DNA of 64,000 bases from Marsupella aquatica. Lineage: Eukaryota > Plantae > Marchantiophyta. The notes beneath the pieces were generated by a model, which made no database searches, was not told the origin of the DNA, and saw only the letters and a program-made list of their open reading frames with translations. The stretch is from positions 3,516,490 to 3,580,489 of the forward strand of contig OZ316893.1 in the NCBI GenBank assembly GCA_973895155.1, in the 5' to 3' direction. Shown here in pieces: positions 1 through 36,635 of the stretch (positions are counted from its first letter, which is position 1; the number at the start of each line of letters is the position of its first letter). A program made the position numbers and the translations under genes.

Positions 1-217
1 CAAGAACGACCACGCACTAACCCAGGTAAAAGGGAAACTTAACCATGGTTAAGGGGAAATTAACCATTGTTTATAGCGTCTCCTATATAAAGAGGAGCGG
101 GCTGCCCATAAAACGTTTGCTTTCGCCAGAGCAAATATCTCCTGATTGAGAGCGAATACCAAACTCCCATCAAGTCTTACATTCCTCCCAAGCGATTCGA
201 CTCTTTCTACCGAAAAC

Positions 218-554
218 CCGACAAATTTATCGGAACAGCCATTCCTGTTCAAGTTCTCCATGTAAGACTAACTAGTCATTTAGTGTAAAATGTCCAGATC
301 CGAGCGGACTGCGATAAATTTATCGCATTTTGCATTCCTCTGTTGCAATCATTTAATCCAGTGTGTTTAGAGAGGTGTTGCCTTCATTCCGATAAATTTA
401 TCGGAGTCTCCATTCCTTTCATGGAAAGAGGAGTAATTGAGAATCCGATAAATTTATCGGAGTTGTCATTTTTGTGAAAGATTGAATTCAGGGCTTAGGT
501 GTCTGAGGAAGTCATATTTTCAATTCGAATGCGGAGTGCGATAAACTTATCGCA
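218..554. promoter_or_regulatory. Cluster of five palindromic CGATAAATTTATCG-type sites
   Basis: Copies at 218-233, 310-327 (perfect 18-bp TGCGATAAATTTATCGCA), 388-405, 444-461 and 537-554. Confidence 0.7.
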
Positions 555-686
555 TCCTCCTGTGAGAATCATTTTCCTTTGTTTTGTTTGGAGACTCATC
601 TTCATCTCTGATGTCGCAGTGTTGCCGGGTTTAGGAGGCACAACGGAAGGTCGATTGCACTCCGTGGACAACAGGTATTGTGACAA

Positions 687-1016
687 ATGGCTGTCTTCCT
701 TGAAAATTGTGTCAAACGTGCACGCCTATTGTACAAGAGACTTGTGCGACTCAAAGTTCTCCCCATCGGTATAGGAGCATTGTGGATGGGTGGTACTGAT
801 CCTAGAGATAGGCAGAATCCTCTCCGCATTGAATTATGCGGAATGAATGATGCAAGAGTTCCAATTTGTTCGAGGTTGATGTTAACGGCGTGTTTACATT
901 CTTTGGAGTTTTCTTGTAACTATTGTTGTCGTCGTCTTGACAACAAGTACCACAAACAGGCTCACTTCTGTTGTAAGATTTGGAACGAAGACCCTTGGGT
1001 GAACCTTTCACGATGA
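687..1016 (+). CDS. Small Cys/His-rich hypothetical protein
   Basis: 109-aa ATG ORF with CNYCC and HFCC clusters, co-oriented with the other cargo ORFs. Confidence 0.25.
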   Translation: MAVFLENCVKRARLLYKRLVRLKVLPIGIGALWMGGTDPRDRQNPLRIELCGMNDARVPICSRLMLTACLHSLEFSCNYCCRRLDNKYHKQAHFCCKIWNEDPWVNLSR

Positions 1017-1291
1017 GTGTTTCGACCTTTTCATTGAGGTGCATCTTGGAAGGACATATTTAAATAAACAAGTCCTACCCTTGCGCAGTGAATATAATAC
1101 GTCACGAGTCCTAATCGTTAAACTGTCGTGCAGGGTTGGTACTGTGGATGTGTTCGGTTACACCTGGTGATTGAAGGTATTTTTATTGGTGGTTTTGGTA
1201 GCTCTGCTTCATGGCTGCATTGGAGAATCTAATCGTTGCAAAGATGGGATCCGTTTTAGCCCACGAGCGTAGAAAATATATTTGAGGAAAA

Positions 1292-1759
1292 GTGCCCGAT
1301 GTGGAATGCGAAAGTTTGTTGAATGGACTTCCCGATGAACTCGTTGAATCTCACATTTGGCCCCTCCTAGCCTTGTCTTGCACACAAGATGAACACCTTG
1401 GCCTTGACCTAAAACTTCTACCAGAAGAACGACTGACTCGAATGAGAACAATCATTTGTCTTGGAGCCACCTCGAAGAAATGGAACCATCTTGTTGTTGG
1501 TACACGATTTTGGGCGCTATTGAAATATGCAGTCCGTGAGATCAATGACATAAACAAAATGCTCGCAAGCATTCCTAATGCCGACCTTCTCTCAAACCTA
1601 CATATTGCTAGGGTCTTCCGAGAGGAAACTCATTTCCTCCCTCCCATAGATATGCTTGGGTGCTTTTCGTATGAGCAGTTAGATCAGTTTCGTAGAGTTT
1701 GGATAAATCTTGGAGAAAGCGGGAAGCGGACAATTCTTGCATGGCATGGACGAGTCTGA
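1292..1759 (+). CDS. F-box-like protein (transposon cargo)
   Basis: N-terminal LLNGLPDELVESHIWPLL...RTIICLGATSKKWNHLV resembles the plant F-box consensus (LPDEL...I...L.....V.K.W..L). The start codon is uncertain. Confidence 0.55.
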   Translation: MPDVECESLLNGLPDELVESHIWPLLALSCTQDEHLGLDLKLLPEERLTRMRTIICLGATSKKWNHLVVGTRFWALLKYAVREINDINKMLASIPNADLLSNLHIARVFREETHFLPPIDMLGCFSYEQLDQFRRVWINLGESGKRTILAWHGRV

Positions 1760-2051
1760 GTGGATGAGGCATTGCAGCGAACATCCGATAAATTTATCGC
1801 ACTCCTCATTCCTCTAGTCGATTTTGGGTGCTTGTAAAGAAACACTTTGAATATAATTGACTCTGCCTCCCCTGACTTCGGGTTGTGTGGTCCAGAGTGT
1901 ATTTTTTTGTGCCTCTTCGGACGATTAGCTGAGAAGTGCATTGGCAGTACAGCCCGTTATACAAGGTACTATAAAGTTGGATGAAACTTGTAGAATTGTA
2001 ATTAGTATGTTCTCCAAAATTTATTCCTGATTTCTATTCGGTGATCAGGCC

Positions 2052-2531
2052 ATGCTCGAGCGACGCATTTTTGTACCCTTCTCGGATCCTCCAGAATGGG
2101 GGAATGGAGCCATGCTGGACCAGCTAAGGAGGCTCGATGAGTCACTAATTTTAAAGATATGCAGGCTGGTAGTAAAACTGTTTTACCATAACACATTTCA
2201 CTTCTACGTAGATCAGGTAGGGGGAGAAATTTATATTCGGTGGGATAGATATGTTGGATTTTCTAGAAGAGTTATCCTACTCTTTCTGAAAACCGGTGCA
2301 GTAAGACGTTTTATACTCCACTGCTGTCATGTTGTGAAGGGCAATCCTGCTTATGAGCCAGAATTCTATGCCGACAACAGACGTAGAGCATTCGATGAGA
2401 TTCAGGATGTGATTGACGAGCTGGACAATCCTCTTGCCACCGAGTTTTTTATTGACACTGGTGGGAAACTATATTCATACAAGATTCGTCAACTCCCCCC
2501 CCCCAGCCGGTCTGTGGGCTCTTTAACTTGA
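2052..2531 (+). CDS. Hypothetical 159-aa protein inside the transposon
   Basis: Intact ATG-started ORF with globular-looking composition, co-oriented with neighbouring cargo ORFs. No family recognised. Confidence 0.4.
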   Translation: MLERRIFVPFSDPPEWGNGAMLDQLRRLDESLILKICRLVVKLFYHNTFHFYVDQVGGEIYIRWDRYVGFSRRVILLFLKTGAVRRFILHCCHVVKGNPAYEPEFYADNRRRAFDEIQDVIDELDNPLATEFFIDTGGKLYSYKIRQLPPPSRSVGSLT

Positions 2532-2767
2532 TCTATGTAAGTTGCCTGTGGACGAACGTCCTTGCCAATGGTGAGATCTGTCCATGCTGCACAAATGCTT
2601 GTTGTGACATTCCGTCACGCCGGTATTCAGTAGCAGTAGTGAATCCTGAGACTGGTGAAGTTGATTTCCATTGGCTGTGGGCTTATGATCATCGCGTCAC
2701 TCATATTCCCCAATGGCCCAAGAAGCGGATCGAACGCTTCGCTCTGGCGAGGTTCAACTATGATTAG
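2528..2767 (+). CDS. Small Cys-rich hypothetical protein (CPCCxxxCC)
   Basis: 79-aa ORF overlapping the stop of the previous ORF, with a Cys cluster. Non-ATG start, so it may be an exon. Confidence 0.25.
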   Translation: MIYVSCLWTNVLANGEICPCCTNACCDIPSRRYSVAVVNPETGEVDFHWLWAYDHRVTHIPQWPKKRIERFALARFNYD

Positions 2768-2805
2768 GGTTTAGGTTTAGGGGTTAAGGTTTTGGATTTA
2801 GGGTT
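2764..2805 (+). repeat. Degenerate plant telomere-like (TTTAGGG) tract
   Basis: ttagggtttaggtttaggggttaaggttttggatttagggtt. Confidence 0.55.
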
Positions 2806-2987
2806 CCGTAGCTGATTCTTTGACTTGTACACTCGGCCATCAATTTAAAGAAGGCTCACTTTTGCGATAATTTTATCGGTCTCTTTGTCCTTGTGTGATG
2901 AGATGTCGTGTCCACATGTGCTGTGAGATTGGCGGCGATAATTTTATCGCTCTTTGCATTGGAATTTGTTTATTTGCAGACTTTTCC

Positions 2988-5900
2988 ATGGCTGCTAGTG
3001 GAAAGAGTGGATCTGCTGAGGCAGAAAGTCTCATGACAAGCCTCACCAATGCAATTTGGACAAGTGAAGACATTTGTGAAGAGGTCAAGTGTATCAAGAA
3101 GTCATGGTACTTCCGTGACGCCAGATTACAGTCCACGGGTTTCGAAGACTGTGCTACCCCAATCCTTTGGGTCCAGTTGCAAAAATTGGCGAAGGTTAAT
3201 GTTTCGTATGGCCCTGTCACTGCTGTTGCCGTCGTCGAGTTCATGGTTGGCCACGGGGAGGGAAAAGTGTTGACAGAGGGCCTTAGTTTCTTGACAATGT
3301 GTGGGCGCAAGGGTTTCACATCTCTCATTGTTACTCTCGATAACTTTGATGAGAAATCGATGGACAGTTATCCAGAAGATCCCCTTGTTGCCGATGTTTG
3401 GGCAGCAAGAGAGATGAATGTTATGGGTTCAGCTTGGATCGGCCAGTATGTGCAAGATTGTGATGCCATCATGCTTCCAAGGGTGAACGCAGAGTACAAG
3501 AGACTTGTGGGTGAAGAGTTCAAACCTGTCCGCAAAATTGTTTTCAAGAAACCAGGTTCAAGTGGCAGCGGTGGTTCTAATGCCGATAAAATATCGGGGC
3601 GGAAAGAACCATTGCAATCCTCTACACATATTGACGTGGACGAACCTACAACTTCTGGTCGGGTTTCGGGAAGTGGAAAAGGGAAAGGGAGAGGTAGCGG
3701 CAGGGGAGATGCCGCGGGAACTTCTGACGGTGGGAAGAAGAGCCAGGAAATTGGCGGTAGTGGGAGAGGCCGGGGCAACCGTCGAGGACCATCCGTTAAA
3801 CCAAGCGAAAGTAAAGGATCCGAGGGATCCGGGCCATCTGGTTCTGGACTTAGCACAAAGAGGAAGAGGACTGGTTGGACTGAGACGGTGGCTGCAGAAG
3901 TAGATAGAGCTCCATCAATTCCATCAGTTCCAGTCGTGGTTCCTGCGGCGCCATTGGTAAGTACTACATCGTTGTACTGTTTAACAAACACGAAATCCGA
4001 TAAAAATCTCGCTATTTATTTCCTGAATTACGGATTGTGGAGTTATGTTGAACAAATGCGAACTCCGATAAAAATCTCACAATTTCTTTCCTTAATTGAA
4101 TTTGCAATGCTTTTGTAGGCTGATCAGGAGGAGGAGACGGCTATTTCGATGTATGAGATGGACGCGATCAAGGCAGAGCTTAGTCTTCTGATGCAACGAA
4201 GGGTGCAAAGGACAACTATGCTTCTGCATGTCGACAATCTCATATTTGATGAGGAGGGGGATTTGACAACTTTGATTAGACCAGTGGATAGATTGCATGT
4301 GGAAAATATCAAGATACTTCTCATGAAAAACCCCACCAACTTCAGTGCCCCGTTTGTGCTGTGTGTGGATCCGAAGGATTGTCCCACAACCACAGATTGG
4401 GACATCCTGAAGTCAAGGGTATGGAAGTATAGAGTTATTGGAGGGAATCATGGTGCTCGGGCAAAGTCCGAGTTGTTTAAAATGTACGAGAAGCAAATAT
4501 ATGGTGAGCTGGAAGCTTGGGTTTACGCTGGGCTTACGAGATCCGAGGTCCGAAAGTTAGGCTTCCAGCATAACTATGACCAGGAGTATCGGAAGAACAT
4601 GACTAAAATTGACCAAGTTCGCGCTTGTCACAATATTTTCCTTGAAATGGGTGTGGGCTCGACTAAAGATGTCCGCGAAGCATGTTGTCAAGAATGCATG
4701 ATGGAGTACACGCCAGGAGTTTGTGACTCCATGGCCAAACATGATCCGGCTTTCCAAATTGCTTTCCGAACAGGTGAAATTTGGGATCTTGAGGAGCAGA
4801 TTTTCCAGATGTGGGAGAAAGGTATTGTCTTAGGACAACCCAAAAAAATTGTGGCAATGACGAACGCAAAGGGAAAGGTAAAACCTTTGACGGTAAGGGA
4901 GATTAAAATGAATAAACTTGCTGGTGACCTCAACTTAAATTCATTTCGAGGTCTCCAAGGACTGTCAAATAAGGAGCATGTCAAGCGTCTCTTGAATAGG
5001 GTTATCGGGAAGGTGATCACTTTGGATCAAATGCACAAGGAAGGTGAGAAGTTGAAAAAGCTTGCCAAGGTGAAGAAACTATTTTTGCAGATATCTGGTC
5101 AGCCAGATTGGGCAACATGCAGAGACATGTTTCCCAACAAAACAGATGTCTCGGTCCTTGGCATATGGGCGGAGAAATTGAGTGACGCGGTAAGCATTCC
5201 TCTCACAACATGCTCTATCGCGAGATTTTTATTGGCTTTAGCATTCCTTTGTTGGTTTCTAAGCGATTGCATCTATCAGCTAGCGTGCTCCATCGCGAGA
5301 TTTTTATCGGCTTTAGCATTCCTTTGTTGGTTTCTAAGCGATTCCATCTGTTGGCTAGCGTGCTCCATCACGAGATTTTTATCGGCTTTAGCATTCATCT
5401 CACGCTATTCTAACTGTAGATGTGTCTGACATTCTTACAGTTGAAGATTAATTCAAAAAGGAAAAGCAAAGTGGTTCCGGTTGTCACTTATAATTCTGCG
5501 GGGGAGGTTATTGTTCCCTCAGCTAAAATCCCTTATGTGTTTAAGAATTTTGTGCTTGCTGCAATCGATAAGTACAATCGGCTGAGGTCCTTAGGCGAGG
5601 ACACAGCAGAAGCGTTTGAACAAACATGGAAAAATGCAGACGGGGATTCTTTTCCCTACTATCTCCATGTTGGTGATGTTCGAATTTTGGATTCTTTTGT
5701 TCAGCCAAGGGCTTACACCCTTGCGGTTGCGGATATTCCGTATGGTTTTAATGCTCCTGGTTCGGAGTTTGATGAAGTGGCCTTCACAGAAAAGGACGTT
5801 TTAGACATGTTGACAAGTTTCTCAAAGATGACGACCGCTAAGCAGTGGAGGTTTGTTGTGATCCATTCACTACAACAAACGCATATGGTGATGTCTGCAC

Positions 5901-6553
5901 TGGAGAGTGTATGCAACTGTGGGGTCGAGGCTGGAATCTGGGAGAAGACTAACATTCATGAGCGTCCCGCTGGAGCTCGATTGGCGTGGGGTTTTGAGAA
6001 CTGGTCGATAGGTTTCTATAGCAAGGAAGGCATTCGGAACATGAACATGTACAATTTCCAACCGGATGAGTCTCGCGTCAATATCATCAAGGTTCCATGT
6101 GTAACCAAGAAGTCCGTTGATCCGTTGGGATTTGTTGTGAACCCATATTAGAAGCCTGTTGGTTTAGGGGCTTGGTTTGTTTCCCATTTCTCTGAGAAAG
6201 AGGATTGGGTTATTGATCTTTGTTGTGGAACCGGATCGACATTAGCTGCTACACTCCTCAATTCTCGCCAGGGTTGTGCTATTGATAAGAGTTCTGCGCA
6301 GATTGGTTTTGTAAAATCCCGGATCATGATTCTGGAGTCAAACTGGAATTTATATGAAGAATCCCAGATTGAAGGGCACGGCGTTGAAGGTCATGAGATT
6401 CAACCACCAATTGCAGGCCAATTGGGTGTACTCGGGACATCGACTTACGTAGTTGAGGTCGTGAAGGAGACCGAAGAGGAACAAGAAGAAACTGAGGAAG
6501 AGTCTCCCAGAACACCAAATGAGGATGATCTCAACGACATGTTATTAGATTAG
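2988..6553 (+). pseudogene. ParB/Srx-like domain fused to beta-class N6-adenine/N4-cytosine DNA methyltransferase, ~1050 aa, 3 exons (2988-3956, 4119-5189, 5441-6553), single in-frame TAG at 6149-6151
   Basis: Two phase-0 GT-AG introns. Exon 2 has LIRPVD..HV..I...YRVIGGNHGARA (ParB-like). Exon 3 has GDVRIL, LAVADIPYG (motif IV), NPY*KP (HPxQKP-like) and, read through the stop, WVIDLCCGTGSTLAATLLNSRQGCAID (motif I, SAM binding), in frame with ORF 6326-6553. Confidence 0.85.
5211..5395. repeat. 75-bp tandem repeat (~2.5 copies) in MTase intron 2, each unit with a motif variant (CGAGATTTTTATCG consensus)
   Basis: Units start at 5211, 5286 and 5361. Confidence 0.9.
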
Positions 6554-6881
6554 TTGCGTGTGCTCGTTAGGATAATGTCAATCACCAATGAAGTTGTCAA
6601 TAAATTTATCGACTTCTGTATTCCATGAGGAAGAACCTTTGTCACATTTATTAATGTGATAAATTTATCGGACTTTGCATATATCGGACTGTCGCGGTGT
6701 TCCTGTTGGGGGAATGGAGTTGTCGATAATCTTATCGGACAGCATTGTATTCTCTAACTGGTTTGTCATTGCAATTATTTAAAAAAAAAGATATCATTAT
6801 AGCTGCAGAGTACATAGTCCCAGAACGATAACCACTGTACATATTCATGGGAACGATAACCATTATAACTTAAACCTGAAA

Positions 6882-9800
6882 CTAGCTTCGACTATCAACG
6901 ACTATAGTCTCCATTGCATTTTGAATGATTCGTCTTGTTTGTATAGGGAGAGTACTATTTGCCAATAACGCAAAGTTATACGCATAAACGGCAGTTTCTG
7001 ATAGGGACAATTCATCCTCCAGTACTTTGCTAGACGAAGCCTCTTTCTCCGGATAATATCTGCCTTCAATTGCAGACTCTTCCTCCGAATCCATTGCATA
7101 CCAAGTGATTTTAATCCGCTCCGGGATGTCGTTAATTCTTGTGAGAATCTCAGTCACTTTTGCCATCCAGAATGGTCTTCCCTTGGGATCCTGATGGGCT
7201 GCTACACATATCATTGCAAATTTAGTATTCACCTCTAGATCCTTGAAGTCTCCAATTTCCGTGACTTTTCTTTGACTTCCGGAATACATGACTGTCCTCA
7301 CACCCGCTACTTTATCAACCAAGCTAGGTTCCATTGCTACTTCCGTAGGATTACTCGGAAGTTCTCTCTGTACGTTTACCTTGGGCCAACTCCAATCAAA
7401 ACTCCATTGTGCAGGTTTTAGGTGGTGCTGAATCACTTCTTTTTGTTTGTCAAAAAAACGACCCCACCATAGATGATCTGCGTCGTCAAAGTAATTGAAT
7501 CCATCTTCAATTGCTCTTCGATATTTTTGAAGAGTTGACAAATAACTTTGAGCCGCCCGCTCATCTTGTTCCTCAGCATCATTCTCTTGCTCTTCATTGT
7601 CTCCTGTCGCTCCCGTGGCCGACTTCAATGCCATTTGTGGTGCAACCCACATTCCAGATGATGGAATGTACCGAACAAAATCCACCGTCTCCCCCCAATC
7701 GATTGTCGTTGAAAGATGTTTGGCATGGAATACGGACCGAACACTTCCATCTTCGAGTACTCTAGTAATCCGAAATTGTTTTTGAGCACTTATGCCGTGG
7801 AGAGTACGTAGAACCTGACCATCCATATCCTTGTCATTTGCTTGATCCTTGTCTGACACAAATTTCTTGAAATCGGCAACCTCGTCGACAAAAAATATCT
7901 TTGCCGTAGGATTGTAGGATTCCTCTATGATTGCTGAAAGAGTGTCCAACCGGAAAGCTTTCCGCTTGTTCAATTTTGAAAAAACTTGCTAAACATTTGA
8001 TCAATTTGATCATGGGTGTGCCCCACCAATAGGAAACCAACCTTTATTTTCTGGAAAACACCTATCTCCACCAACATATTCAAATATGCCATAAGATATT
8101 TATTCTTGTTTTCCCGAGCTGTGTTATCAAGCTGGAGGTAAAGCACTGGAGGGAGCAGACCTTCCCAGGTATTCAGAATATGCTGGATAACGTGGATGGT
8201 CAGGTTGCTATCATTGTGAATATTTGGATAGTTCAAAAAAACATTTGAACTTAATTGTTTGTTGAAGATCAAACAACCCACTACGTGTACGGGGATGAAA
8301 TACTTTTCATCCATATTCTTCGGACACCGAATGAAATGAGGTAACTCTGTCTTCTTTTGATCCATTCCATCAATACAGATGCCCAAATATTTCTCCGGAC
8401 TCTTGTAACATTTGCTTCGGTGCTTTGCTAACTTCTCCCTCTCGATTGCTTGTGCCTTCTGATGCTCATTTAGCAATGTTGAGAATTTTCCTACAATAAT
8501 AAAAATGTTTAGGACAAAACATGGTAACCGCAATGTTGAACCCTGACAGCGATAAATTTATCGGGTTCAGTATTCAAACACGAGACCGTAATGATAAACC
8601 CTGACAACGATAAATTTATCGGGTTCAGTATTCAAACACAAGATCGTAATGAAAAACTGTGACAACGATAAATTTATCAGGTTCAGTATTCAAATTGTTC
8701 AAACGATATATTCACTCACATGGCCAAAGAAGAAGCACATGAATACTCAACCCGATAAAATTATCGGGAGTAACACACAGGTTTAGAAACTTACTTTTTT
8801 CTGCTTCGAGTGTTGCCTTGTCACGTAGTGCTTTGAATTCAGTACACGGGGCGCAGGTGGAGAAACGGCTCCTTTTGGGGATGCGCACGCAAGGAAACTC
8901 CTTGTTCCAAATGCAAACAAACCACGAATATGTCATGCCTTGTTCTTGGCGCATTAGAGTTTCGGACTGGAAGGCATCAAAAACTTCTGTTTTTGTCCAA
9001 TTGTCAGGTAAATGAAAGATATCCTTGTTGGGGAGACTCTCGACATTTGTGGAAAAAAAATCATCCAGCCATTGGACGAGACCAAGATGTGCGGGTGATT
9101 TTTCTCGACAAACTGTACCGATCTGTATCCGAGAAAACATGTTCTGCGAGATTTTTTGGAGATGATTATTTCCCAGTGAAAATAATTTCTTAAAACCACT
9201 TCGACAAAAGGATCTACCGCTAACTGAGTAACCACTTGCACCAGCATGCCCACCATTCACACATCCTCTTAGAAGGACGTTCTTCTCTGGGTAGGATAGC
9301 CCATAGTAATAAGTGCATTGTTTTGTCACGGCTAGCAGACCCAAATTCCGCAGATAGTAATTATCACAACATGAATACTTATGAATTTCTCTCATTTTGT
9401 TTCTATTCAATTTGTCATTTATCACATTGTCTTTCCTAGTAATTCGGTCCCTATCTTTTTTACTAGGCTCATTTGACTTCTCTACAACCTGAAATCCGTT
9501 CATAACATTGGCATTTTCGGGTCCTTCAGGTGCCTCGCGAATAGATGCATCACTCTTTGCTGAGCTACCATCCTCTATAGATCTCCTTGACGCATTTAGA
9601 GGGGCACTGAATAGACGACTATAGCTATTCTCTTCGACAGCTCCTTCTAAACATTCAGACACAGCTTGTGCTATTATATCGGATTCTCTATCTCCTTCCT
9701 CATCTTCGTCCTCCGATGCACTCGACTCATCTGAAAACACAATTGGACTCCATGGCTCTCTATACATAACCCGAACGCCACTAAGACCTCTCCTCGATAC

Positions 9801-10472
9801 TTGGAGCCTGGAACCAATGACAGTCCGCCCTTGAGAACTTGGAGATTCTGGATTCGCACGTGCAGTCCCAACGACTCCGCGAGCTGCTGGAAAATTGAGC
9901 ACTTGTTCACCACGATTCCCACGGACCATTCGAGAAAGGGCCGAGTCTGGACTTCGCAGTCCGATTCCCTCGCTTGTTCGCACATCCAGTCCAGGCAATG
10001 CAAAGACCGATCGCCGTATCGGTCTTTGTATTTCTGTGTCCCGATCCTCACCCGGAGACTGAAAGATCCGTCGTTGAACTTGTGTTGAATGTGGCGACTT
10101 GAATGCCGACTGTGATACGCGTATCGGTTGCCTGATACCCTCTCCATAACCCGGGATGGATGGCCTGAAGCGACGTCTCGGACCTAAACCTGGGATTGAA
10201 AGTTTCTCATTTCTTGGCGATGGAACGCTCAAGAGACGACGCTTCTCAGGTTTACTAGGCGACACATAGTAAGCACTGGGCTCAGGACCAGAACTTGCAT
10301 CAGAATCTGAGTCAGAGATTTCGGGCACTATTTGCTGTGAGAGAGGTAGAGCTTTAAGTATGCGACTTGGCAAACAGCGAGCGACAAGATTAGGAGAGGA
10401 TTCAACTGAACTGGAAGGTGAATCTGTGTCTGATTGAGACATGGCTATCCGAGACACTATGGGGCTTTGCAT
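6882..10472 (-). pseudogene. DDE transposase, Sola1-like/DUF7869-type, ~1095 aa, 2 exons (10472-8795, 8490-6882), one frameshift at ~7975-7985
   Basis: Motifs YSVSGRSFCRSGF, WNKEFPCVRIPKRSRFSTCAPC, CIDGMDQKKTELPHF, LPPVLYLQLDNTARENKN, FLLVGHTHDQIDQMFS. The GT-AG intron 8794-8491 joins EAEK-R-KFSTLL in phase. The frameshift lies in a T run. The N-terminus is long and Ser/Arg-rich; the C-terminus has a PFWMAKV...ITWY module. Confidence 0.85.
8538..8695. repeat. 58-bp tandem repeat (~3 copies) in the transposase intron, each unit with CGATAAATTTATC
   Basis: Motif starts at 8550, 8608 and 8666. Confidence 0.9.
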
Positions 10473-10726
10473 TCCTCCCACAATCAGGGAAAACGAAAGG
10501 CTCAACGGACAGAATGTTGCTCCAAGAACACAACTTCCAAAACTCTACTCTCGATAATGACGCCAAAAACTTATCGGCGGTGGCCCTTTTATAGTGTCTG
10601 TTGAGGGGTTGGCCCACGTGTCCACTTTTGATTGGCTGTCACCCTCAACGACAAAATAGCAGAAAATGGTATATTTCTTGGATTTCCAATTTCATTCTCA
10701 CACGTGCATCGTGGCAAAATTATATA

Positions 10727-10950
10727 GTTTTGAAATTGAAGCGATAAATTTATCTGATGTTGGTATTGCAAAAGTGGTTCCTTCATATGGAAGTTACAAT
10801 TTGAAATTGAAGCGATAAATTTATCTGATGTTGGTATTGCAAAAGTGGTTCCTTCATATGGAAGTTGCAATTTTGAAATTGAAGCGATAAATTTATCTAA
10901 TGTTGGTATTGGGAAGAGTTTTCTTCATATGGATAGGAATTTTGAAATTT
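10727..10950. repeat. 71-72-bp tandem repeat (3 copies) upstream of the transposase, each unit with GCGATAAATTTATC
   Basis: Motif starts at 10741, 10812 and 10884. Confidence 0.9.
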
Positions 10951-11929
10951 AACCGATGAACCGAAGGATCTTAGTATTGTCGACTAGTATTATTATCGCC
11001 CGTAGTTTTTGCGATAATTTTATCGGATTGCGCATTGCTGTTGAAAGAATGGCATGTTGACTATGGTCACTTGCGGAGGTAACTGGTCAATTGCGGAGGT
11101 AACTGCAAGGTAAATTTGATGAACCGTGCAGTAATTCTTATCGACTGTGATGTAAAATATTTTTGGTAAATATCCAAAACTGAGAAACCTGAGATTGGGT
11201 CGGAGTTTTCGTGGCTCAAATCCGGAGTCCGATACAGTTATCACACTTGGCTCAAAACGTGGATATGGATTTATAGATAAGACCTTTCATATATCTTTGG
11301 AGAGCGTGAATATGAGGTCGAGGAGAAAGTTTTTCGGATCTAATTGTTCCTTGATAATATGAATGTTTGTTAGCATGAATTTCATTGGTTTTGATCATTA
11401 TTAAATTTGCTGTTTCAATCCGAACTCCGATACGAATTACATTATTTCCCCAAAAACGCGTTTTTGATGAAAAAAACTGTTGATTTCGCGAGATTCGGCG
11501 GAAAATAAAAATACACTTCTCGTTTAGAGGAAATAGTTCTCGTTCGGTCCGAAATCGTGTTGCGGATCTCTTAACCAAATTGTTGACACCTGCTATTCAT
11601 CAACGACATTGCGGCCATGCAGTTGGAATTTGGAGCTTACAACGATTGATGTCTGCAACGTGATCCACACTTTTGATATTGTCGCAGCTACTGCTTTCTT
11701 TTGACAATGTCTTTTTGGAGACGATTGTTATCATAGTTGCTCATAATTACTCATATACATTAGACAAGGAGGATTACAATAATGATACTCTTTTTCCTTT
11801 AGAACCAGATTTTAAAAAATAAAATTCTCTACTACCTTGATGGAGTTGTTTTTATAAAAGAGTTGCTAAAGGTTTTAACGAGACAGTCATCCTCACTTGT
11901 ACATATATATCATGTATCTCTTATAAACA

Positions 11930-12208: not shown

Positions 12209-13605
12209 TTCTGGTAGTTGTTGGTGTCTAGTTGGATAGCTGAATGGTCAACTCTATGTTGTCCTAAGAATAAATGTAAGCTTTCAAGAACATGTCGAGT
12301 GTGACTGCTTATGCTAACTTTCCTATTTATCACTTTGTAAGAATCTCATGCTTAAAGAACCAATTTCCTTGAGAGCCTTCTCTACTCCCGGCCATTTCTC
12401 AAGTTCTTTGGGTTTGCCTTGTGCCTCTTACGGATTTCTTTAGATAAATTGGGTGAGAGTGGACCTCCCACCACGTGCCCATCCAAACTTGTTTCTCAGC
12501 CTCGTTCTCAACCTTGAAACAAGTGGAACCTTGCACTAACGTGGAATGTTGGGGCAAGTTCTCTTCAACTACACTCCACCCCGCACTCCACTCCCATATA
12601 AAGTCAAATTTGCCCTCGTCAGCACGACCGTCGCTCAACAATCTTTACTATTTGCGCAAGCAACCAACCAATTGGCAAGTAACCTGTCTGGATCTCAAAA
12701 CTCTCAAGACTATTGTCTTGCATCAAGCTCAACAGTTCTTAGTAAATAGGTCAATGGATAGAGTCTTCCAAGCCCGCATGACCTTGCCATAAGCAAAAAC
12801 TTCTTAGGGTCAATATCAACGTTTGTTCAAAACAGTATATCTATAGGATGCCGTCTAAGCTTTCCCATTTTCTACCCATCCATGGCTAACCGCCTTGCGT
12901 CCAGGATATGCCCATGGTCCCTCGGGGGTTTCACTACATGGAGGCCTCCCCATCACTTGCAATGTTTTTAGGCCTCATAAGATTACAAGCACCTCATTAT
13001 TTAAGATCCTTTTTTCTGTCAAATTGAAGGTCTTAATATTTTGTGCGAGCCAAATACTCCACAATACTTGATAAAACACAAAAGACTAGAGGATATACAA
13101 TGGTATTTTTCCCAAAGGCAAAGCTAGAACAATCCCATCAACTCCAGTTCCCTAGCGCTATCGTCAGGAAATTATGATATGGTATAATAGTTTGATTTTG
13201 TGTGAAAATTATTATTAATCTTAGGGAAGTCACTTCCCCAAAAGTGACACATCATGTGCAACAAAGTATAGACCCATTTAAATGGGTGTGGCAAAAGACT
13301 TCCAAAGTTTTGTGGAAAAATACAAAGGGCATGTTTTATTGACTAGCCAACTTTAAAGAACACATAGGCTTATCTATTATAAAATATATATTCTTAAATT
13401 TTTTGGGGGGTTTTTTAGTAAAAATAACAAAATTTTAAAAAAAACATGTTTGCAAAGAAATATTTTTACTTATAAGTTAGGGGGGTCAAACCCTAAAACG
13501 TTGCATGCGATGTATGGCCCTCCATATAGTGACCCCCAAGTTATTCATATTTTCTAAAGATACCTAGAAAGCTTACTAGGCAATGAGGTAACTTTTGAAT
13601 AAAGT

Positions 13606-13808
13606 CCCAGGGCCCTCACTCCATGTAAAAGAAGTGGAACCCTTGCAATGGGGCCCTTTTTGTGTTTACCCATTGTTATTTCCATTTTACCATTAAAAGT
13701 TCCCTTATTACTAGTAATAATTATAAATATTAGTTCAAAATGAATAAAAACTACCCTTTGAGCTTTTGCACATCCTCCACGTATTAGTTAAGACTAAGGG
13801 CCCAAGGG
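13606..13808 (-). mobile_element. ~205-bp MITE (family A), copy 1
   Basis: TIR CCC(A/T)GGGCCCT, flanked by 8-bp TSD AATAAAGT (13598-13605 and 13809-13816). Homologous to 14676-14879 and 25963-26164. Confidence 0.85.
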
Positions 13809-14115
13809 AATAAAGTATGTTAGAATGAAACCTGAGCAAATTCATAATATGGCGTGATAGGAAGGAATTTGAGAAGGTTCCCAATATGGTGTGCTAGAAA
13901 TGAACTACTTTTGGCCAACTTCTTAGAGAAGTTGTGTTTTATAGAGTATAAATAAGAGGGAGGCCCACAAGGGTCGGGACAAGGGTAATCCAATCTTTGT
14001 AGTTTTGGATATGCCCGGTTCAAGAGGAGTAGGAAAACATTACCAAGTGAGCCGACTCAAGAAATTTGCAGAGGATTTGAATCCAAATGGGCAACAAGTC
14101 TTCTGACCCAATATC

Positions 14116-14322
14116 TTGCTTGATGATGTGGAGGAGTACATTGTAGAGACTATTCTTGATCACCAATACAAATGTCGGATTGAAAAGCCAATGCTTGAAT
14201 ATTTGGTTAATAGTCTGGATAACACCAAATGGAAAGCACATGGGAGCCTGAAGATAATCTCAAGTTACGCAATCCCAAAATCCTTGCAAGCTATCGTAAG
14301 TGGAGAGGCCTTATTGAAGTAG
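14116..14322 (+). pseudogene. Chromodomain remnant of chromovirus (Ty3/gypsy) integrase
   Basis: DDVEEYIVETILDH...LEYLV matches the chromodomain consensus EYEVEKILD...EYLVKW. Confidence 0.6.
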
Positions 14323-14675
14323 GACAATTGCAATCACCTAAGCAAGTTGTATCCTTCTGCACTCAAATAGGAAGAAGGTTTTTCCAATAGTGGCGCCAAA
14401 AACAGGACCACACCTATGTCACCTACTTATCAAACGAGTTACACGACAAATGTACATATGTTTCTTCTACTAAACTTATTTGTGTTGTATTTATGGGAAC
14501 GTGGAGGGACGTTATTTAGATTGTTCACACACAAAAATGAGTATATTGGTTTCCGCTCCTGAACATCTATTTTTTGATCAAGTCTACCAACTGGGCATGT
14601 TCCCCATTTTTTATCAATACAGTAGACCAGACTACTCATGCTTCTCCTCAATGGCCTTTGGCAGAGTGCTGTCAC

Positions 14676-14879
14676 CCCTGGGCCCTCAGTCTTAACTAAC
14701 ACATGGAGGACGTCCGAACGCTCGAAGGATAGTTTTTATTCATTTTGAACTAATAATTATAATTATTACTGGTAATAAGGGAACTCTTAATGGTAAAATG
14801 GAAATAATAAGGGGTAAACATGAAAAGGGCCCGATCGCAGGGGGGTCCACTTATTTTACATAGAGTGAGGGCCCAAGGG
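14676..14879 (+). mobile_element. ~205-bp MITE (family A), copy 2
   Basis: Same TIRs and body as copy 1, in opposite orientation. Flanked by a (G)CTGTCAC(C) duplication. Confidence 0.85.
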
Positions 14880-16228
14880 CTGTCACCACTCTCACTCACA
14901 TTGTTAGGGTCGATTGAACCGTGCAAGTATCTTTTAAATAATCATTCTAGGGAAGAACACAATTGCAAAAAGAAAGAGAGACAACACCACACCAAAAGTA
15001 GTGAAACAACCAAATCCATGTCTCTTGGTGGCTAGCGTAACACATTGCATGGGCAACCCAACCGTCTACCCAACTCTTGTCTCAAGGGACAATGCGCACC
15101 TCTCCACCTCACTACTTTGGATTCATTCTCTATACTCACGTAATGCTAATCTTCCAACATACACTTGACTGAGTTCCCCCCCTTCACCTACTGAGGGCTA
15201 CCCTTAAATACCAAGAAACCACACCAAAGCACACAAGCCCTACAAGGGTGTGGCAGCCATGCCCTGGCTGGCCGCTACCCCCTATCAGCGCTACTAACCT
15301 AAACCTTTCAAACACATGCGACAAACACATGTGTCACGTCGTCAGCATAGGCCTTAACCCGGGCTTCGGCTTAGACAGGCACATCCTTCGTCAAAATGAG
15401 GGTTCGGGCAAGGAGGGAGGCATGGAATGCACCTAACTCACGTAAACTAGTGCTAAGTGCGCCTATTGTCATATACGAACACCTCCTAGGTATGGTTTGT
15501 GTTCCGCTGCCGGAACGTACCTTAGTCGATAGCAGGATCAACCCCGGCTTACGGGCTTCTAAGCCTTTGTGTTGTTTGCCTTTGATCCGGATTCGATGAT
15601 ATGGGTACTCAACCCGGGCTCGCAACCACTTACCTGCAAGTTGCACCCCGTGCACGACTTGGGTAGTGCGTTTGGCCAAGCGTTGGCACCTATACACGAG
15701 ATTCACACATATACATATGCACAAGCATACAATCTCAATTTACACGAAGGAAATAATGGGAAAGGATTTTACTACATAGGAGACATATGCGTACACTTAG
15801 TTGACCCAAAAGCTCTTGAATGAACAGGTCCAAGGCCGAGGGTGTACACTAGTACAATGGAGCCCGGCTTTGCACTCGCCCAGCGAGCTTAGTCCTACGC
15901 CCTCCCCTTGGTACTCTTTCACTCCCAGAGGTCGGGACTCCCCGCACATACCGCGGATGTCCAACACTAAGACTAAAGCCCCCCCGGCCCTCTACCAAGG
16001 GGTGTAATAAATACTAAGAGCCGAGGACCGGAGTGCTCTCGTGCCCAAAGATTCGCTAACTAAGATCCTAACTAAATTGGCTATCAGGCCGGAAAACGGC
16101 TTGTCTTATTAGAAGATCCTAATCTACGCAGGCTGGATAGCATGGCTGTGCTGCTTTAACTACGGCAGGTGCTTGTCCCTATAGCCTGATTTAGCTATTC
16201 CTAACTCTATTTTAATCCTACTCCGCCG

Positions 16229-18270
16229 CTAATGCCTGGCACGCTTGCCAGAGCCGCCTGAGTGGGAGCGGCTATCCCGCTGCCTTCTGAGTCTGTTGGT
16301 GTCCTGCTTGAGTAGCTGGACCTGGTCCAGCAGAGATTCGTTCTCCCGCTTCACCACATCCACCTCTTTCGCGGCCTCCTGGCATGCCTCCTCCAGTTGG
16401 TGGGTGTCGCTCGTTAGCTTATCCACCAACTAGGCCTATTTCATGGCTTCTCCTTGAAGCCATGCCACCTCTGTCTTTAGGGTGTCAATCTCGGCTGTGT
16501 CCCGTTGAGACCTAGAGTCAGCTTCCTCCAGATCTTTTTGCCAACTGACGGCTTGTCCCTTCAAACCGTCAATCTTGGTCCGGAGCCGTGCGATCTCGAC
16601 GTCCTTTCCGAGCCCGGCCTGTTCTGCTAAAGCTGCTTGGGCCCTAGCCTCGGCAACCTAGTCCTCCGTGGCCGTTACCTGAGGCCGCAGTTGCTAGAGT
16701 TCAACCTCCAGGGTTGCCACTTTGTCCTTCAGGTAGGCAAACTCAACCCGGTATCACTCTATTCTCTGCGCTGTCTGTGCCTGCGCATGTCTTGCCCTTA
16801 CAGCCGCAACCAACTCCTGGTTGAAGAAGTAGGCCATCCACCGGGCCATGTATTCCCCGGTGTCCCGAGAGATCTGTTGAGAGAAATCTCCCAACAACCC
16901 ATTCAGAAATGTGCCCGGCGCAAAGAGTTCCAGATGGTCTAGACTGTGTCCATCTGGATTCGGGCACGGGTAGACTCCAACCCGTGCGGGAGTAGGACTG
17001 GACACATCCAGCCCTTGAGGTAAGTTGGTCGAAGGGGCTGGTTCCACTGGAGGTGGGCGGTTCTCCTGCACAACCGCAGGGGGTGGCGGAATCTCCTCGG
17101 CTACCGTGGCATCTGCTTCAGGTATGGCTTTGTCCGGACCGGCTTTGATTGCATTGTCCCGATTGATCGCGTCTAAGGTTGAAATAACGTCTATGGGTAT
17201 GCTTGGCGGGGCGGCAGCGGCGGGTTGCGGGGCCGGGGTAGCAGGGCTTGCAGCTGCCAGACTTCGGGCCTTGGGCTGTGGTCGCCTCACCTAGGCTGGG
17301 AACACCCATTTTGATGGGGTCAGCTCGGGCTCGTTGATACGTGGGAGGCTGCGGCGGTCGAGACGAGCGTACCACTCGATGATGATTTTGATGTGGCTAG
17401 CGAAGTACGCCTTTCCGCCAAGGTACAAAGTCTTTCTTCTCCGCTCCATCTCCTCGTGGAACTTCTTGATGAAGAAGGACGCCCACTTCCTGGGCCGATA
17501 GTTCTCCACCTGGATGACCTGGGCGGCCGATATTTTGCCTATGGGTTCCATCATGTGGAGGGCATACCGCTGGAACTCCAAGCGTTCTGCCACTTCTGGT
17601 ATGAGGCACGTTCTCATTAAGAATCCATTGTCCACTGCTTCCTCAGTCGGGAAGCTAGAAGACTGGTATTTAGCTCCCTTGCCCCCAGGAGCTCGCAACT
17701 CTACCCGGTTTATCCCCTCGGGTAGGCCAAAAATCATCTTCAAATGTGCCTCATTGAGACACATCAATCTCTCATGCGCTCGGTTTGTTGACGGGCCTCG
17801 TTGAAGTTCTGAATGAACTCTGTCATATCCTGCCCATAGTACCTGCTTTCGTTCCAAGGGAGAGAGGCGAGGTGCTCAAACCCTTGGGTCTTCAGATAGC
17901 ATGCATGCTTGGGGTGGAGGATGTTCTTGTGAACATTGTCCCCCATGCGATGCATGGTCAGCTTGGCTACCGCAACCGTGGCCAAAGGCAACCCGGATAC
18001 GGCTGCGGGTTCCTTCCTCTTCCTACCCCGAGACTGATTCCCGGGGTGACTAGAAGAAGGAGACATCTCTCCTTCCTCTCGGTCAGGTGGTGGTAGCACT
18101 ACTGCCGTGAGTATTGGTGTCAAGGCTGCTAGAGTTACCGTGTTATCCCCTCGGGCTTGCTGGAGTGATGCTGGGTTGTTCGGCGCTTGTTGAGTTGTAC
18201 CCCGCGGCCGTCGATTCAAAGGAGGATGAGCCTCCTTGTCTTTGAAGCTAATATTCACCGCATTCACCAC
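16229..18270 (-). pseudogene. Retrotransposon-type accessory ORF (plant-mobile-domain-like region, Pro/Ala-rich linker, coiled coil), decayed
   Basis: ORF pieces 18270-17764, 17857-17291, 17290-16754 and 16429-16229 are joined by one frameshift (~17780) and in-frame stops. Motifs HLKMIFGLPEG and KWASFFIKKFHEEM resemble Tat/Athila-type extra ORFs; the C-terminus is heptad-rich. Confidence 0.55.
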
Positions 18271-34319: not shown

Positions 34320-36635
34320 TGCCAGTGTATTGCAGCCGGTCGTTTGCCTCCTCCCGTCTCTCGGCTCTTGAGTGCTTCTCGTTTATTGGCCATGGCTAAG
34401 TCTTCACCGGGTGTTCGGCCAATTGCTATTGGGGAGGTTTTTCTTCGGGTTGTGTCTCGCACACTTTCCTCGCAGTTTCGCTCTGCACTATCGGATCATC
34501 TCTCTCCACATCAGTTTGCAGTTGGCATTCCTGGCGGTTGTGAGACAGTTATTGCGGGTATTCGAGCTACCTTGGACCTCCACCCTGATTGGGTTGTCCT
34601 CTAGGTTGATATCTCTAACGCTTTTAATACGGTTTCTCGGGTAGCCATTTTTCGTGCTTTGAGGGCGGCGGATCCAGACATCCAGTCCCTGATCCCCTTT
34701 GTCCGTTGTTTTTATGGACTCGAGGCCCCACTCTTCTATAGTCATCACTCCTCTACAGGTGTGTATACCACTCTTTCCTCTGCAGAAGGTACTCGTCAGG
34801 GTGACCCTTTGGGTGGGCCTCTTTTTGCTATTGCCCATTTTACAGCTTTACGGGAAGCCGCCATGGCCCACCCCCAGTGTATCTTCCCCTCCCTTTCAGA
34901 TGACACCCACATCATTGGTCCTCCTGCCGCGGTTACTTCTGCCCTCGCCACTCTTTCCACCCATTTGATGGGCCTCGGTTTACGAGTTCAGCCTGTGAAG
35001 AGTCGTGCATGGAGTCCAGCTGGGTTACCCTCTGATCTTGCGCTTCCCCCAGGGTTCTTACGTCCAGTCAATGGTCTTCGGGTCCTTGGCTCCCTAGTCG
35101 GTACCGCCTCCTTTTGCTCCTCTTTCATCGCTGACTCTCTATAGGCTGCCTTAGCCTCTACTCCTATGCTCCCTAAGTTAGCAGATTCTCAAGCAGCATT
35201 TGGGATGTTGTTGAGGTGCATCCACCCTCGTGCGTCTTATCTGGCTAGGACGCATCCCCCTACCGAGGATCTTTGTCTCCACCTTCGAGCATTTGATGTC
35301 TCCATTCGTCAGACCCTGGCCTCTCTTTTGGGGCCGGGTATGTTGCTCTCATCTCCGTGGCTTCATCGACAACTCAGTCTTCCTATTTCGCAGGGTGGTT
35401 TTGGGCTTACTTCCATTGAGAGCCTTGCACCTTTGGCCTTTTTGGGTGCGTGGGCAGCCGCCTTCTCATTGTTGGCCGATCGTTTTCTTATTGAGGATCG
35501 CCCTTTTTTACTTTCATCTCTCATGGAGGTAGAGGAGGGTTCCCTCCCGTTTCCATCATCCTCTCCGAGGCACCTGACACGGACCGAGCTCGGATTCTTT
35601 CTTCCGGAGGGAAGGGCGCAGGTGGATGGCTTCAGGCCAATCCAGTCATTCCTTATTTGCGGATGTCTTCAACGGAGTTCTCCACAGCCATGCATCTTCG
35701 TATGGGGCTGCCCCACCCACTTCTTGCAGGTTTACCTCCTTGCACTTGTGGGAAGCCTTGTGATGCCACAGGTGTCCATCTTCTTCGGTGCAGTTTGGGA
35801 GGTGAAACCATTATAGTTCACGACGTTGTGCGAGATGCGACTGCTCAGGTTCTCTCTGGCTCTTTGGTATGCGTGCGGTGGGAGGTGGTACTCGAGTTAC
35901 CTGGTCCTCCATCACAGCGGTTACGGGTGGATCTTACCATGGTCCGTGAGGGTCAACGTACATTGGCAGATGTAGTGGTGGCAAACCCATTGCGCCAAGA
36001 CATCATTGGGACAGCGGCAACTACAGCAGGGGCAGCAGCATCACGTGCGGCAACAACGAAGGAGGCCAAATATGCTGCACGAGCTTCATCCGACAGCTTC
36101 CTCCCCCTTGCTCTGGAGCTATTTGGGAGTTTCATCCTCAGTTTGATGGGCTTCTTCGGCAAGCTGCCCGGGATGTTCATGGCCGCATGGGTCCCACCAG
36201 ACCCCCGCTTTCTATTTTGACCATGCACTTTCGCCAACGCATTTCAGTCACCTTGCAGCGTGCTCAAGCTCGGGCCATCTATCGTCGATCTCTTACAGTG
36301 GGTGCTAGTGTGCCTCCGCAGCGGCTAGCTCCCCTTGAGGATGTTCCAATCCCACTTGCCGATCTAGTTTTGACCCTTGATGTGGACCATTAGCTTTTTG
36401 CCACATTCGCTAGGAATGATTGAGGACCTCGGTCCGCTTGGGTTAGTTTTAGTCTCTCTTTCTTGGTTTTTAGGGGTTCCCTATTGCTCATTTCTTACTT
36501 TTTGTTCCTCTTTCTTGGTGTTTAGTGGTTCCCTTTTGCTCATTTCTTTTTCGATTGGTTTTGTACACTTGGGCCCTCTTTTGTTTGTTCATTTGTACTC
36601 TGTTTGGTCCCTTTGTATATAAAAAGTGTGTATAT
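34320..36635 (+). mobile_element. 5'-truncated non-LTR retrotransposon, CRE/R2-type (RT + CCHC finger + restriction-like endonuclease), pseudogenised
   Basis: GVRPIAIGEVFLR, HQFAVGIPGGCE, *VDISNAFNTVSR, GTRQGDPLG, SLSDD, CTCG...HLLRC, HDVVRD, RVDL...LADV...KEAKY...FLPLALE. Stops at 34602 and 35142 plus frameshifts; T-rich 3' UTR ending in an A run. Confidence 0.9.

Follow-up and report, generated by a model that had tools for sequence, protein, structure and literature searches.

Does a plant transposon carry the enzyme that would mark its own DNA? The question is raised by a stretch of 64,000 nucleotides from the liverwort Marsupella aquatica (contig OZ316893.1, positions 3,516,490 to 3,580,489; this whole stretch is called the window), in which a reading of the letters alone (the sequence-only reading) had recognized a DNA transposon whose accessory gene fuses a ParB-like domain to a bacterial-type amino-DNA-methyltransferase (MTase). 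The element is a copy of a cut-and-paste transposon with a DUF7869 transposase, and the accessory gene is genuine transposon cargo that is stably linked to this transposase. We favour, with a probability of roughly 0.55, the reading that the intact accessory protein binds short dyads of the element as a dimer through its ParB half and methylates element DNA nearby, probably to N6-methyladenine (6mA) rather than N4-methylcytosine (4mC), which would help the element.

The DDE-type transposase expected next to the accessory gene was confirmed as a DUF7869 protein (Pfam, E 4.5e-40) encoded on the opposite strand, tail-to-tail at a distance of 328 bp; its intron and a frameshift had been overlooked. 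Judged by this sequence, the element likely belongs to the Sola1 class, if DUF7869 transposases are taken to be of the Sola1 type; the term DUF7869 was absent from the literature searched. Both genes lie where they had been placed (2988-10472), but the element reaches further in both directions: its dyads span 219 to 11025, the probable right end is at 11561 and the left end lies beyond the window start, giving a length of more than 11.5 kb. The GTGTT of the right end occurs only once between 11026 and 11700, and its partner end is outside the window.

The accessory gene and its two predicted domains

The accessory gene proved to be the gene of about 1050 residues with two introns and one stop that had been read from the sequence. 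Its three exons (Table 1), joined across two phase 0 GT-AG introns, splice to 1050 codons plus a terminal stop. The one internal stop falls at codon 917, within NPY(stop)KP, and IRPVD, IGGNHGARA, DIPY and DLCCGTGST are all located where they had been reported. Exon 1 had no match in Pfam or PHROG. A word-index search for longer MTase relatives returned none among 1970 candidates, and an exhaustive search with exon 3 gave 238 proteins at E ≤ 0.001. The named species among the 30 of these that we looked up were Chara braunii, Riccia sorocarpa, Adiantum nelumboides and Ginkgo biloba, and no brown-algal name was among the named matches. A metagenome scan added 63 related loci. The Chara braunii protein P0008 is an 1825-residue gene model with two ParB-MTase units, probably two fused copies.

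The relatives support the join at intron 2, since P0166 is open across this position without an intron and other relatives break there. At the position of the internal stop they have glutamine in 91 of the 95 covered rows and glutamate in four (residue counts here and below refer to the covered rows among the 150 relatives listed). Where CHG-methylated plant DNA decays, CAG is expected to become TAG by a C-to-T change. The transposase frameshift, read from the assembly, lies in a T-run and could be genuine or the result of an assembly error. As assembled, both genes of the window copy are broken and the copy is dead: it cannot methylate, because the stop precedes motifs X and I, and with the transposase frameshifted as well it could be moved or marked only in trans. 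Four related loci (L001, L002, L003 and L006) have an open frame through the S-adenosylmethionine (SAM)-binding motif.

Exon 3 is, by its predicted structure, a beta-class amino-MTase fold in which motif IV precedes motif I, as had been proposed. The AlphaFold2 (AF2) model, with an X placed at the stop, reached a predicted local distance difference test score (pLDDT) of 87.8, and its best Foldseek match was CcrM (E 1.3e-13). A profile of the family matched M.BceJIV (E 2.5e-17), M.RsrI, M1.HpyAVI, CcrM and M.MboIIA, all at E 1e-17 to 1e-12, with PvuII and the bdelloid N4CMT (E 1e-7 to 1e-6) behind them; a single-sequence PDB search gave no significant match. Identity to known beta-class amino-MTases is 14-20%, and the closest phage MTase is 22.7% identical. 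In Pfam the window copy matched PF01555 (N6_N4_Mtase) with E 8e-5 and 23.1 bits, under the cut-off of 26.7, which was passed by 15 of the 21 relatives scanned, including P0002 (71% identical).

Exon 2 is, again by prediction, a ParB/Srx nucleotide-binding-type fold. Its AF2 model (pLDDT 75.8) matched Noc/ParB (Foldseek E 4e-5), and the N-terminal domain superimposed on Caulobacter ParB with Z 9.6 and a root-mean-square deviation (rmsd) of 2.0 over 95 residues, which bears out the ParB/Srx-like domain of the sequence-only reading. Of the database matches anticipated there, those in Foldseek were obtained for both domains, whereas the Pfam match was sub-threshold for the MTase and a ParB match was absent for the window copy. 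The best HTH_ParB match, in L002, was likewise below its cut-off of 22.6 (E 8e-4, 20 bits). A homodimer model of exon 2 scored 0.42, whereas the best of three controls scored 0.00; contact agreement was 72% or higher and pLDDT 73 or higher. The passing mark was attained by 17 of the 29 solved eukaryotic homodimers and by none of 30 single chains.

A feature search of the ESM Atlas with exon 2 placed fungal DUF3723 clusters at the top (0.95, 171 of 256 features shared), which we regard as a lead only. DUF3723 is a conserved cargo gene of fungal Starship elements; no DUF3723 match was found by Pfam in the 16 family members scanned, and no publication treating DUF3723 and ParB together was found in the literature searched.

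Both the ParB and the MTase domains are under strong purifying selection among related copies, with ratios of non-synonymous to synonymous substitution (dN/dS) of about 0.02-0.1. The ratios were taken from pairs with dS of 0.05-1.2, pairs that include the window being saturated. The median was 0.046 for ParB (13 of 253 pairs usable) and 0.07 (10 of 210) and 0.039 (17 of 55) for two MTase exon stretches, with maxima of 0.20 and 0.29; in most pairs the catalytic exons gave about 0.02-0.08. These low values, together with the retained D-x-P-Y, fit the selection that the sequence-only reading had expected on the catalytic motifs.

Among the 101 rows that cover motif IV, Asp is present in 93, the second Pro in 93 and Tyr, Phe or Trp in 88, and the motif I glycines are conserved in 87 and 88 of 93 rows. 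The first Pro is found in only 9 of the 101 rows, and the window copy reads D-I-P-Y, not DPPY. This favours a rival explanation, in which the accessory protein helps by binding DNA and has no useful catalytic activity: its ParB half binds the dyads and its MTase fold only holds or flips DNA, which aids the transposition complex or blocks host silencing. MTase domains on DIRS1 elements were in fact judged inactive (PMC4738411). Against it, the Asp, second Pro, aromatic residue, QKP and SAM-binding glycines are kept in about 87-96% of rows from Chara to Ginkgo, the exact pattern [AI]D.PYG occurs in 29 of the 33 loci whose match spans that stretch, and the catalytic exons are constrained as described above. 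Moreover, the first Pro contributes a main-chain carbonyl (PMC10406627), so its replacement need not abolish catalysis. We consider a non-catalytic helper unlikely, although it is the most serious of the alternatives. As to the kind of mark, the Asp points to 6mA more probably than to 4mC. SPPY is found in 1 of 101 rows. The preference is a weak one, because the amino-MTase domain has changed specificity repeatedly (PMC8885841).

Dyads in the non-coding parts of the element

The palindrome CGATAAWWTTATCG was counted 19 times from 219 to 11025 and is absent from the remaining 52 kb of the window, while shuffled sequences gave a mean of 0.07 and a largest count of 1. With an intron variant included there are 25 dyads: every one of the three introns has two or more, the gap between the genes has three and the arms have the rest, several of the dyads being carried on 58-, 71- and 75-bp tandem units. 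None lies in the five modelled exons (6.4 kb) and none outside the element. Related loci carry a dyad CGA[TG]-N6-[AC]TCG (11 in L001, 20 in L002, 6 in L003) or its N7 form (7 in L026, 8 in L024), located outside coding stretches in 20 of 20 cases in L002, 6 of 6 in L003 and 10 of 11 in L001. The seven dyads of L026 lie in the stretch that separates its two divergent genes, at distances of over 3.5 kb from each end. The dyad, which differs from the parS sequence, is likely a binding site of the ParB half, which the structural models suggest would bind it as a dimer.

We infer that the ParB-like half of the intact protein would dimerize on the dyads in introns and gaps, and that the MTase half would be catalytically active and mark DNA near them, with 6mA as the more probable product. 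The mark may then shield the element from silencing or license its transposition, an effect that we propose by analogy with VANC acting on VANDAL elements.

Several points weigh against this reading. The match of residues 157-314 of exon 2 to the DNA-binding part of Spo0J-parS is weak (Z 5.6, rmsd 3.7 over 103 residues), and sub-threshold HTH_ParB matches (E 0.04-0.09) came from 3 of the 16 members scanned. The dimer model may have passed owing to its likeness to solved ParB dimers, and of seven eukaryotic dimers without an older solved relative one reached the mark. In ParB CTPases the arginine patch is GxxRxxA; the position reads GNHGARA here, with H-[GSTCY] in all variants listed, which makes clamping driven by cytidine triphosphate (CTP) doubtful. 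L022 has one perfect dyad only and many short loci have none, and the transposase could equally plausibly be the dyad binder. The two closest transposase pairs are little constrained (21 synonymous and 18 non-synonymous codons in one, 2 and 7 in the other). About three lineages, along with the same element from several assemblies, make up most of the 63 loci, so that the pairs used for dN/dS are not independent, and private mutations are hidden by collapsed repeat contigs.

Some of these points lead to a second rival, in which the enzyme is active and aimed elsewhere, at target DNA, host DNA or RNA, while the transposase binds the dyads. Repeated internal sites are common for transposases, and we found no cargo-less control element; eukaryotic amino-MTases have, besides, often moved to RNA (PMC4738411). 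However, the dyads stand in introns and between genes, kilobases away from the ends, and the ParB-like DNA-binding region and the predicted dimer suit a palindrome. In an unrelated transposase family, inverted-repeat arrays adjoin the ParB-like PAG3 genes and were proposed as ParB sites (bioRxiv 10.1101/2025.02.11.637652). An enzyme directed away from its element seems to us less probable still than a non-catalytic helper.

Linkage to the transposase and extent of the family

The repeated linkage within shared terminal inverted repeats (TIRs) that the sequence-only reading had called for is seen. Transposase matches occur in 10 of the 63 loci, nine of them placed within the element: two tail-to-tail (L002 and L003, sharing about 50% identity with the window) and seven head-to-head (L017, L022, L023, L026, L039, L044 and L055, about 33% identical). 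L022 is a whole 7.6-kb element with both genes inside 37-nt TIRs (AACAC..GTGTT, 97% complementary). TIR-type ends of this kind occur in 16 of the 63 loci, with differing flanks, and in 15 loci with differing flanks the right TIR follows the accessory gene. Most of the remaining loci are too short or end at the TIR on the transposase-free side; L034 and L042 have long upstream stretches without a transposase match. The 4-bp target site duplication was not found, the flanks of L022 (ATTG and GCCA) being different; its contig has about 111-fold coverage, and its flanks may derive from different copies.

When four elements are compared, identity follows the same ranking for the transposase, ParB and MTase: 55, 55 and 66% between the window and L003, 25, 36 and 40% between the window and L022, and 52, 73 and 66% between L022 and L023. 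That a host or horizontally acquired MTase gene merely came to lie beside an unrelated transposase is very improbable and largely ruled out by the L022 TIR pair and the repeated linkage: 54 of the 63 loci have no transposase in place and gene order varies between lineages, but most loci are short, the right TIR recurs after the gene, a single dyad family spans both genes and the identities co-vary.

The transposase match in L014 was not counted as linkage, as it sits just past the right TIR; this fragment (3928-4052) abuts the TIR, as in a nested or tandem insertion. In L058 (4739-7895) a 5'-truncated copy adjoins a dehydrogenase-like host open reading frame (ORF).

In a tree of 63 MTase domains built by a quick method, the window falls in a 21-row set with Ginkgo (SH-like approximate likelihood ratio test 93), apart from Chara; the tree excludes phage, Riccia and Adiantum rows through a coverage filter, and we claim no donor or host lineage from it. 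A recent bacterial or phage transfer is unsupported: exon 2 had no relatives by sequence in viral contigs, phages or prokaryotic genomes, and the transposase had none in viral contigs.

Table 1 Features of the element and of its accessory gene in the window
Feature	Position	Strand	Basis
Left arm, runs off the window start; nine dyads, four + strand ORFs	1-2987		ORFs, dyad scan
Left-arm ORFs (1286-1759 F-box-like, Pfam E 0.044, below cut-off)	684-1016, 1286-1759, 2031-2531, 2456-2767	+	ORF list
Dispersed palindrome CGATAAWWTTATCG family	219-11025		19 matches at 1 mismatch; 25 including intron variant at 2 mismatches
Exon 1 of the accessory gene: about 185 folded N-terminal residues, low-complexity linker	2988-3956	+	ORF; 30-32% identity to exon 1 of L001, L002, L005
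Intron 1, GT-AG, two dyads	3957-4118	+	Gene model, dyad scan
Exon 2: predicted ParB/Srx-fold domain (about residues 30-155, GGNHGARA), then helical region (about 157-314) like ParB DNA-binding domain	4119-5189	+	AF2, Foldseek
Intron 2, GT-AG, 75-bp tandem repeat with three dyads	5190-5440	+	Gene model, dyad scan
Exon 3: predicted beta-class amino-MTase (motif IV DIPY, NPY-KP, motif I DLCCGTG), acidic tail	5441-6553	+	PF01555, AF2, Foldseek
In-frame stop TAG, cuts off motifs X and I	6149-6151	+	Gene model; Gln in relatives
Gap of 328 bp between gene ends, three dyads	6554-6881		ORFs, dyad scan
Transposase exon 2: DUF7869 core (IDGMDQ, QLDNTARENK, GHTHDQIDQ), C-terminal part; T-run frameshift near 7975-7990	6882-8490	-	Pfam, relatives
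GT-AG intron of the transposase, with four dyads and a 58-bp tandem repeat	8491-8794	-	Gene model, dyad scan
Transposase exon 1: N-terminus of low complexity and a region containing Cys; first plausible ATG taken as start codon	8795-10442	-	26% identity to L022 transposase, E 4e-17
Right arm with a dyad-bearing 71-bp tandem repeat and a probable TIR that ends in GTGTT at 11561	10443-11561		Same end in 16 related loci

The four left-arm ORFs had no match above cut-off in Pfam and none in PHROGs, the 63 related loci or the fetched proteins; they may represent a third cargo gene, with a TATA-like stretch near 84. A short plant-type telomere-like repeat (TTTAGGG-like) lies inside the element at 2764-2783. 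The observed/expected CpG ratio of the element is 0.83, compared with 0.49-0.68 in the rest of the window; age and coding content confound this difference, which was not used as evidence of protection. The transposase N-terminal exon (10133-10208) shows a 76-nt inverted similarity (78%) to a GC-rich ORF region at 17132-17206. Outside the element, the window contains a separate element resembling a miniature inverted-repeat transposable element at 13603-14881 (a long inverted repeat pair of 169 nt, 88%, with a 40-nt outer pair), a decayed reverse transcriptase of the non-long-terminal-repeat type at 34605-36220 (RVT_1 E 3e-5) and, 15 times in 11562-64000, a TAGC-N7-GCTA dyad (expected 0.55).

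Known systems and meaning for land plants

The ParB-MTase cargo design and the idea of self-marking were already published in 2025: the Ectocarpus transposon Sola1-1_Ec32 bears a 1104-residue accessory protein with ParB-like and N4C/N6A MTase parts opposite the transposase, for which self-binding and self-modification were proposed (PMC12477816). The element marking its own DNA, as envisaged by the sequence-only reading, is therefore not a new idea; the architectural part of that claim holds here, and the window element is a land-plant case. Compared by description, both elements have a two-domain accessory gene of similar length on the strand opposite the transposase and AAC..GTT termini (AACCG-CGGTT in Sola1-1_Ec32, AACAC-GTGTT here). 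They differ in size, Sola1-1_Ec32 being 21.5 kb with a 282-bp TIR, L022 7.6 kb with a 37-bp TIR and the window element larger than 11.5 kb, and in host, a brown alga in one case and probably land plants in the other. The best match of the Sola1-1_Ec32 transposase is the moss element Sola1-1_PPa, and the supplement rates its accessory gene Ectocarpus-specific (PMC12477816). No land-plant report of ParB-MTase transposon cargo was found in the literature searched, which leaves Repbase and subscription journals uncovered, and algal supplements may list plants.

Related domains occur as cargo of the Plavaka elements of Bostrychia, where PAG2 combines PF01555 with SET and PAG3 combines ParB with a 2-oxoglutarate (2OG) oxygenase (bioRxiv 10.1101/2025.02.11.637652); these are separate genes with other partner domains on EnSpm/Plavaka elements, whereas here a single protein on a DUF7869 element holds both the ParB-like and the PF01555 domain. 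VANC, whose binding motifs lie in introns and tandem repeats of VANDAL elements and which was shown by experiment to cause loss of 5-methylcytosine (PMC5735166), resembles our case as an accessory gene of an element with short, subfamily-specific motifs in introns, gaps and tandem repeats; it differs in having no ParB or MTase fold and a Mutator-like transposase. With bacterial ParB/Noc and parS, the family would share the N-terminal fold, a DNA-binding-like helical region, the predicted dimer and a palindromic site; identity is 9-21%, the arginine patch is altered and ParA is missing.

The enzymes CcrM, M.BceJIV, M.RsrI and M.MboIIA (6mA) and M.PvuII, bdelloid N4CMT and Marchantia DN4MT1 (4mC) have the same fold and the order IV before I, with DPPY or SPPY where the window family has D-I-P-Y. 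The host genes N4CMT and DN4MT1 have SPPY and lack a ParB domain, unlike the ParB-fused family described here. The suggestion that such elements were a source of plant 4mC enzymes is unsupported, because Marchantia DN4MT1 has the motif TSPPY and no extra domains, set against the Asp that prevails in the family. The accessible part of Iyer et al. 2016 contains no clade fitting the family and lists few N6A MTases in land plants (PMC4738411).

A wider picture is possible, and we hold it tentatively. An old Sola1-type family, distributed from liverworts to gymnosperms and in Chara, may write an amino-methyl mark, likely 6mA, on itself, its ParB-like dimer loading at parS-like dyads. This would represent anti-silencing based on a writer, and with it a source of 6mA/4mC in seed-free plants that has so far gone unrecognised; the DUF3723 of Starships is maybe a similar ParB-like cargo. 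The origin of 6mA in plant DNA is debated. To the published design the family adds TIR-bounded relatives in two gene orders, catalytic residues under purifying selection and a candidate site in every non-coding interval. With its open-frame relatives, kept catalytic residues, 7.6-kb whole elements and a candidate N6/N7 site, this land-plant family makes the algal self-marking proposal testable, and, if active, its accessory protein would write 6mA/4mC in plants from a gene borne by a transposon.

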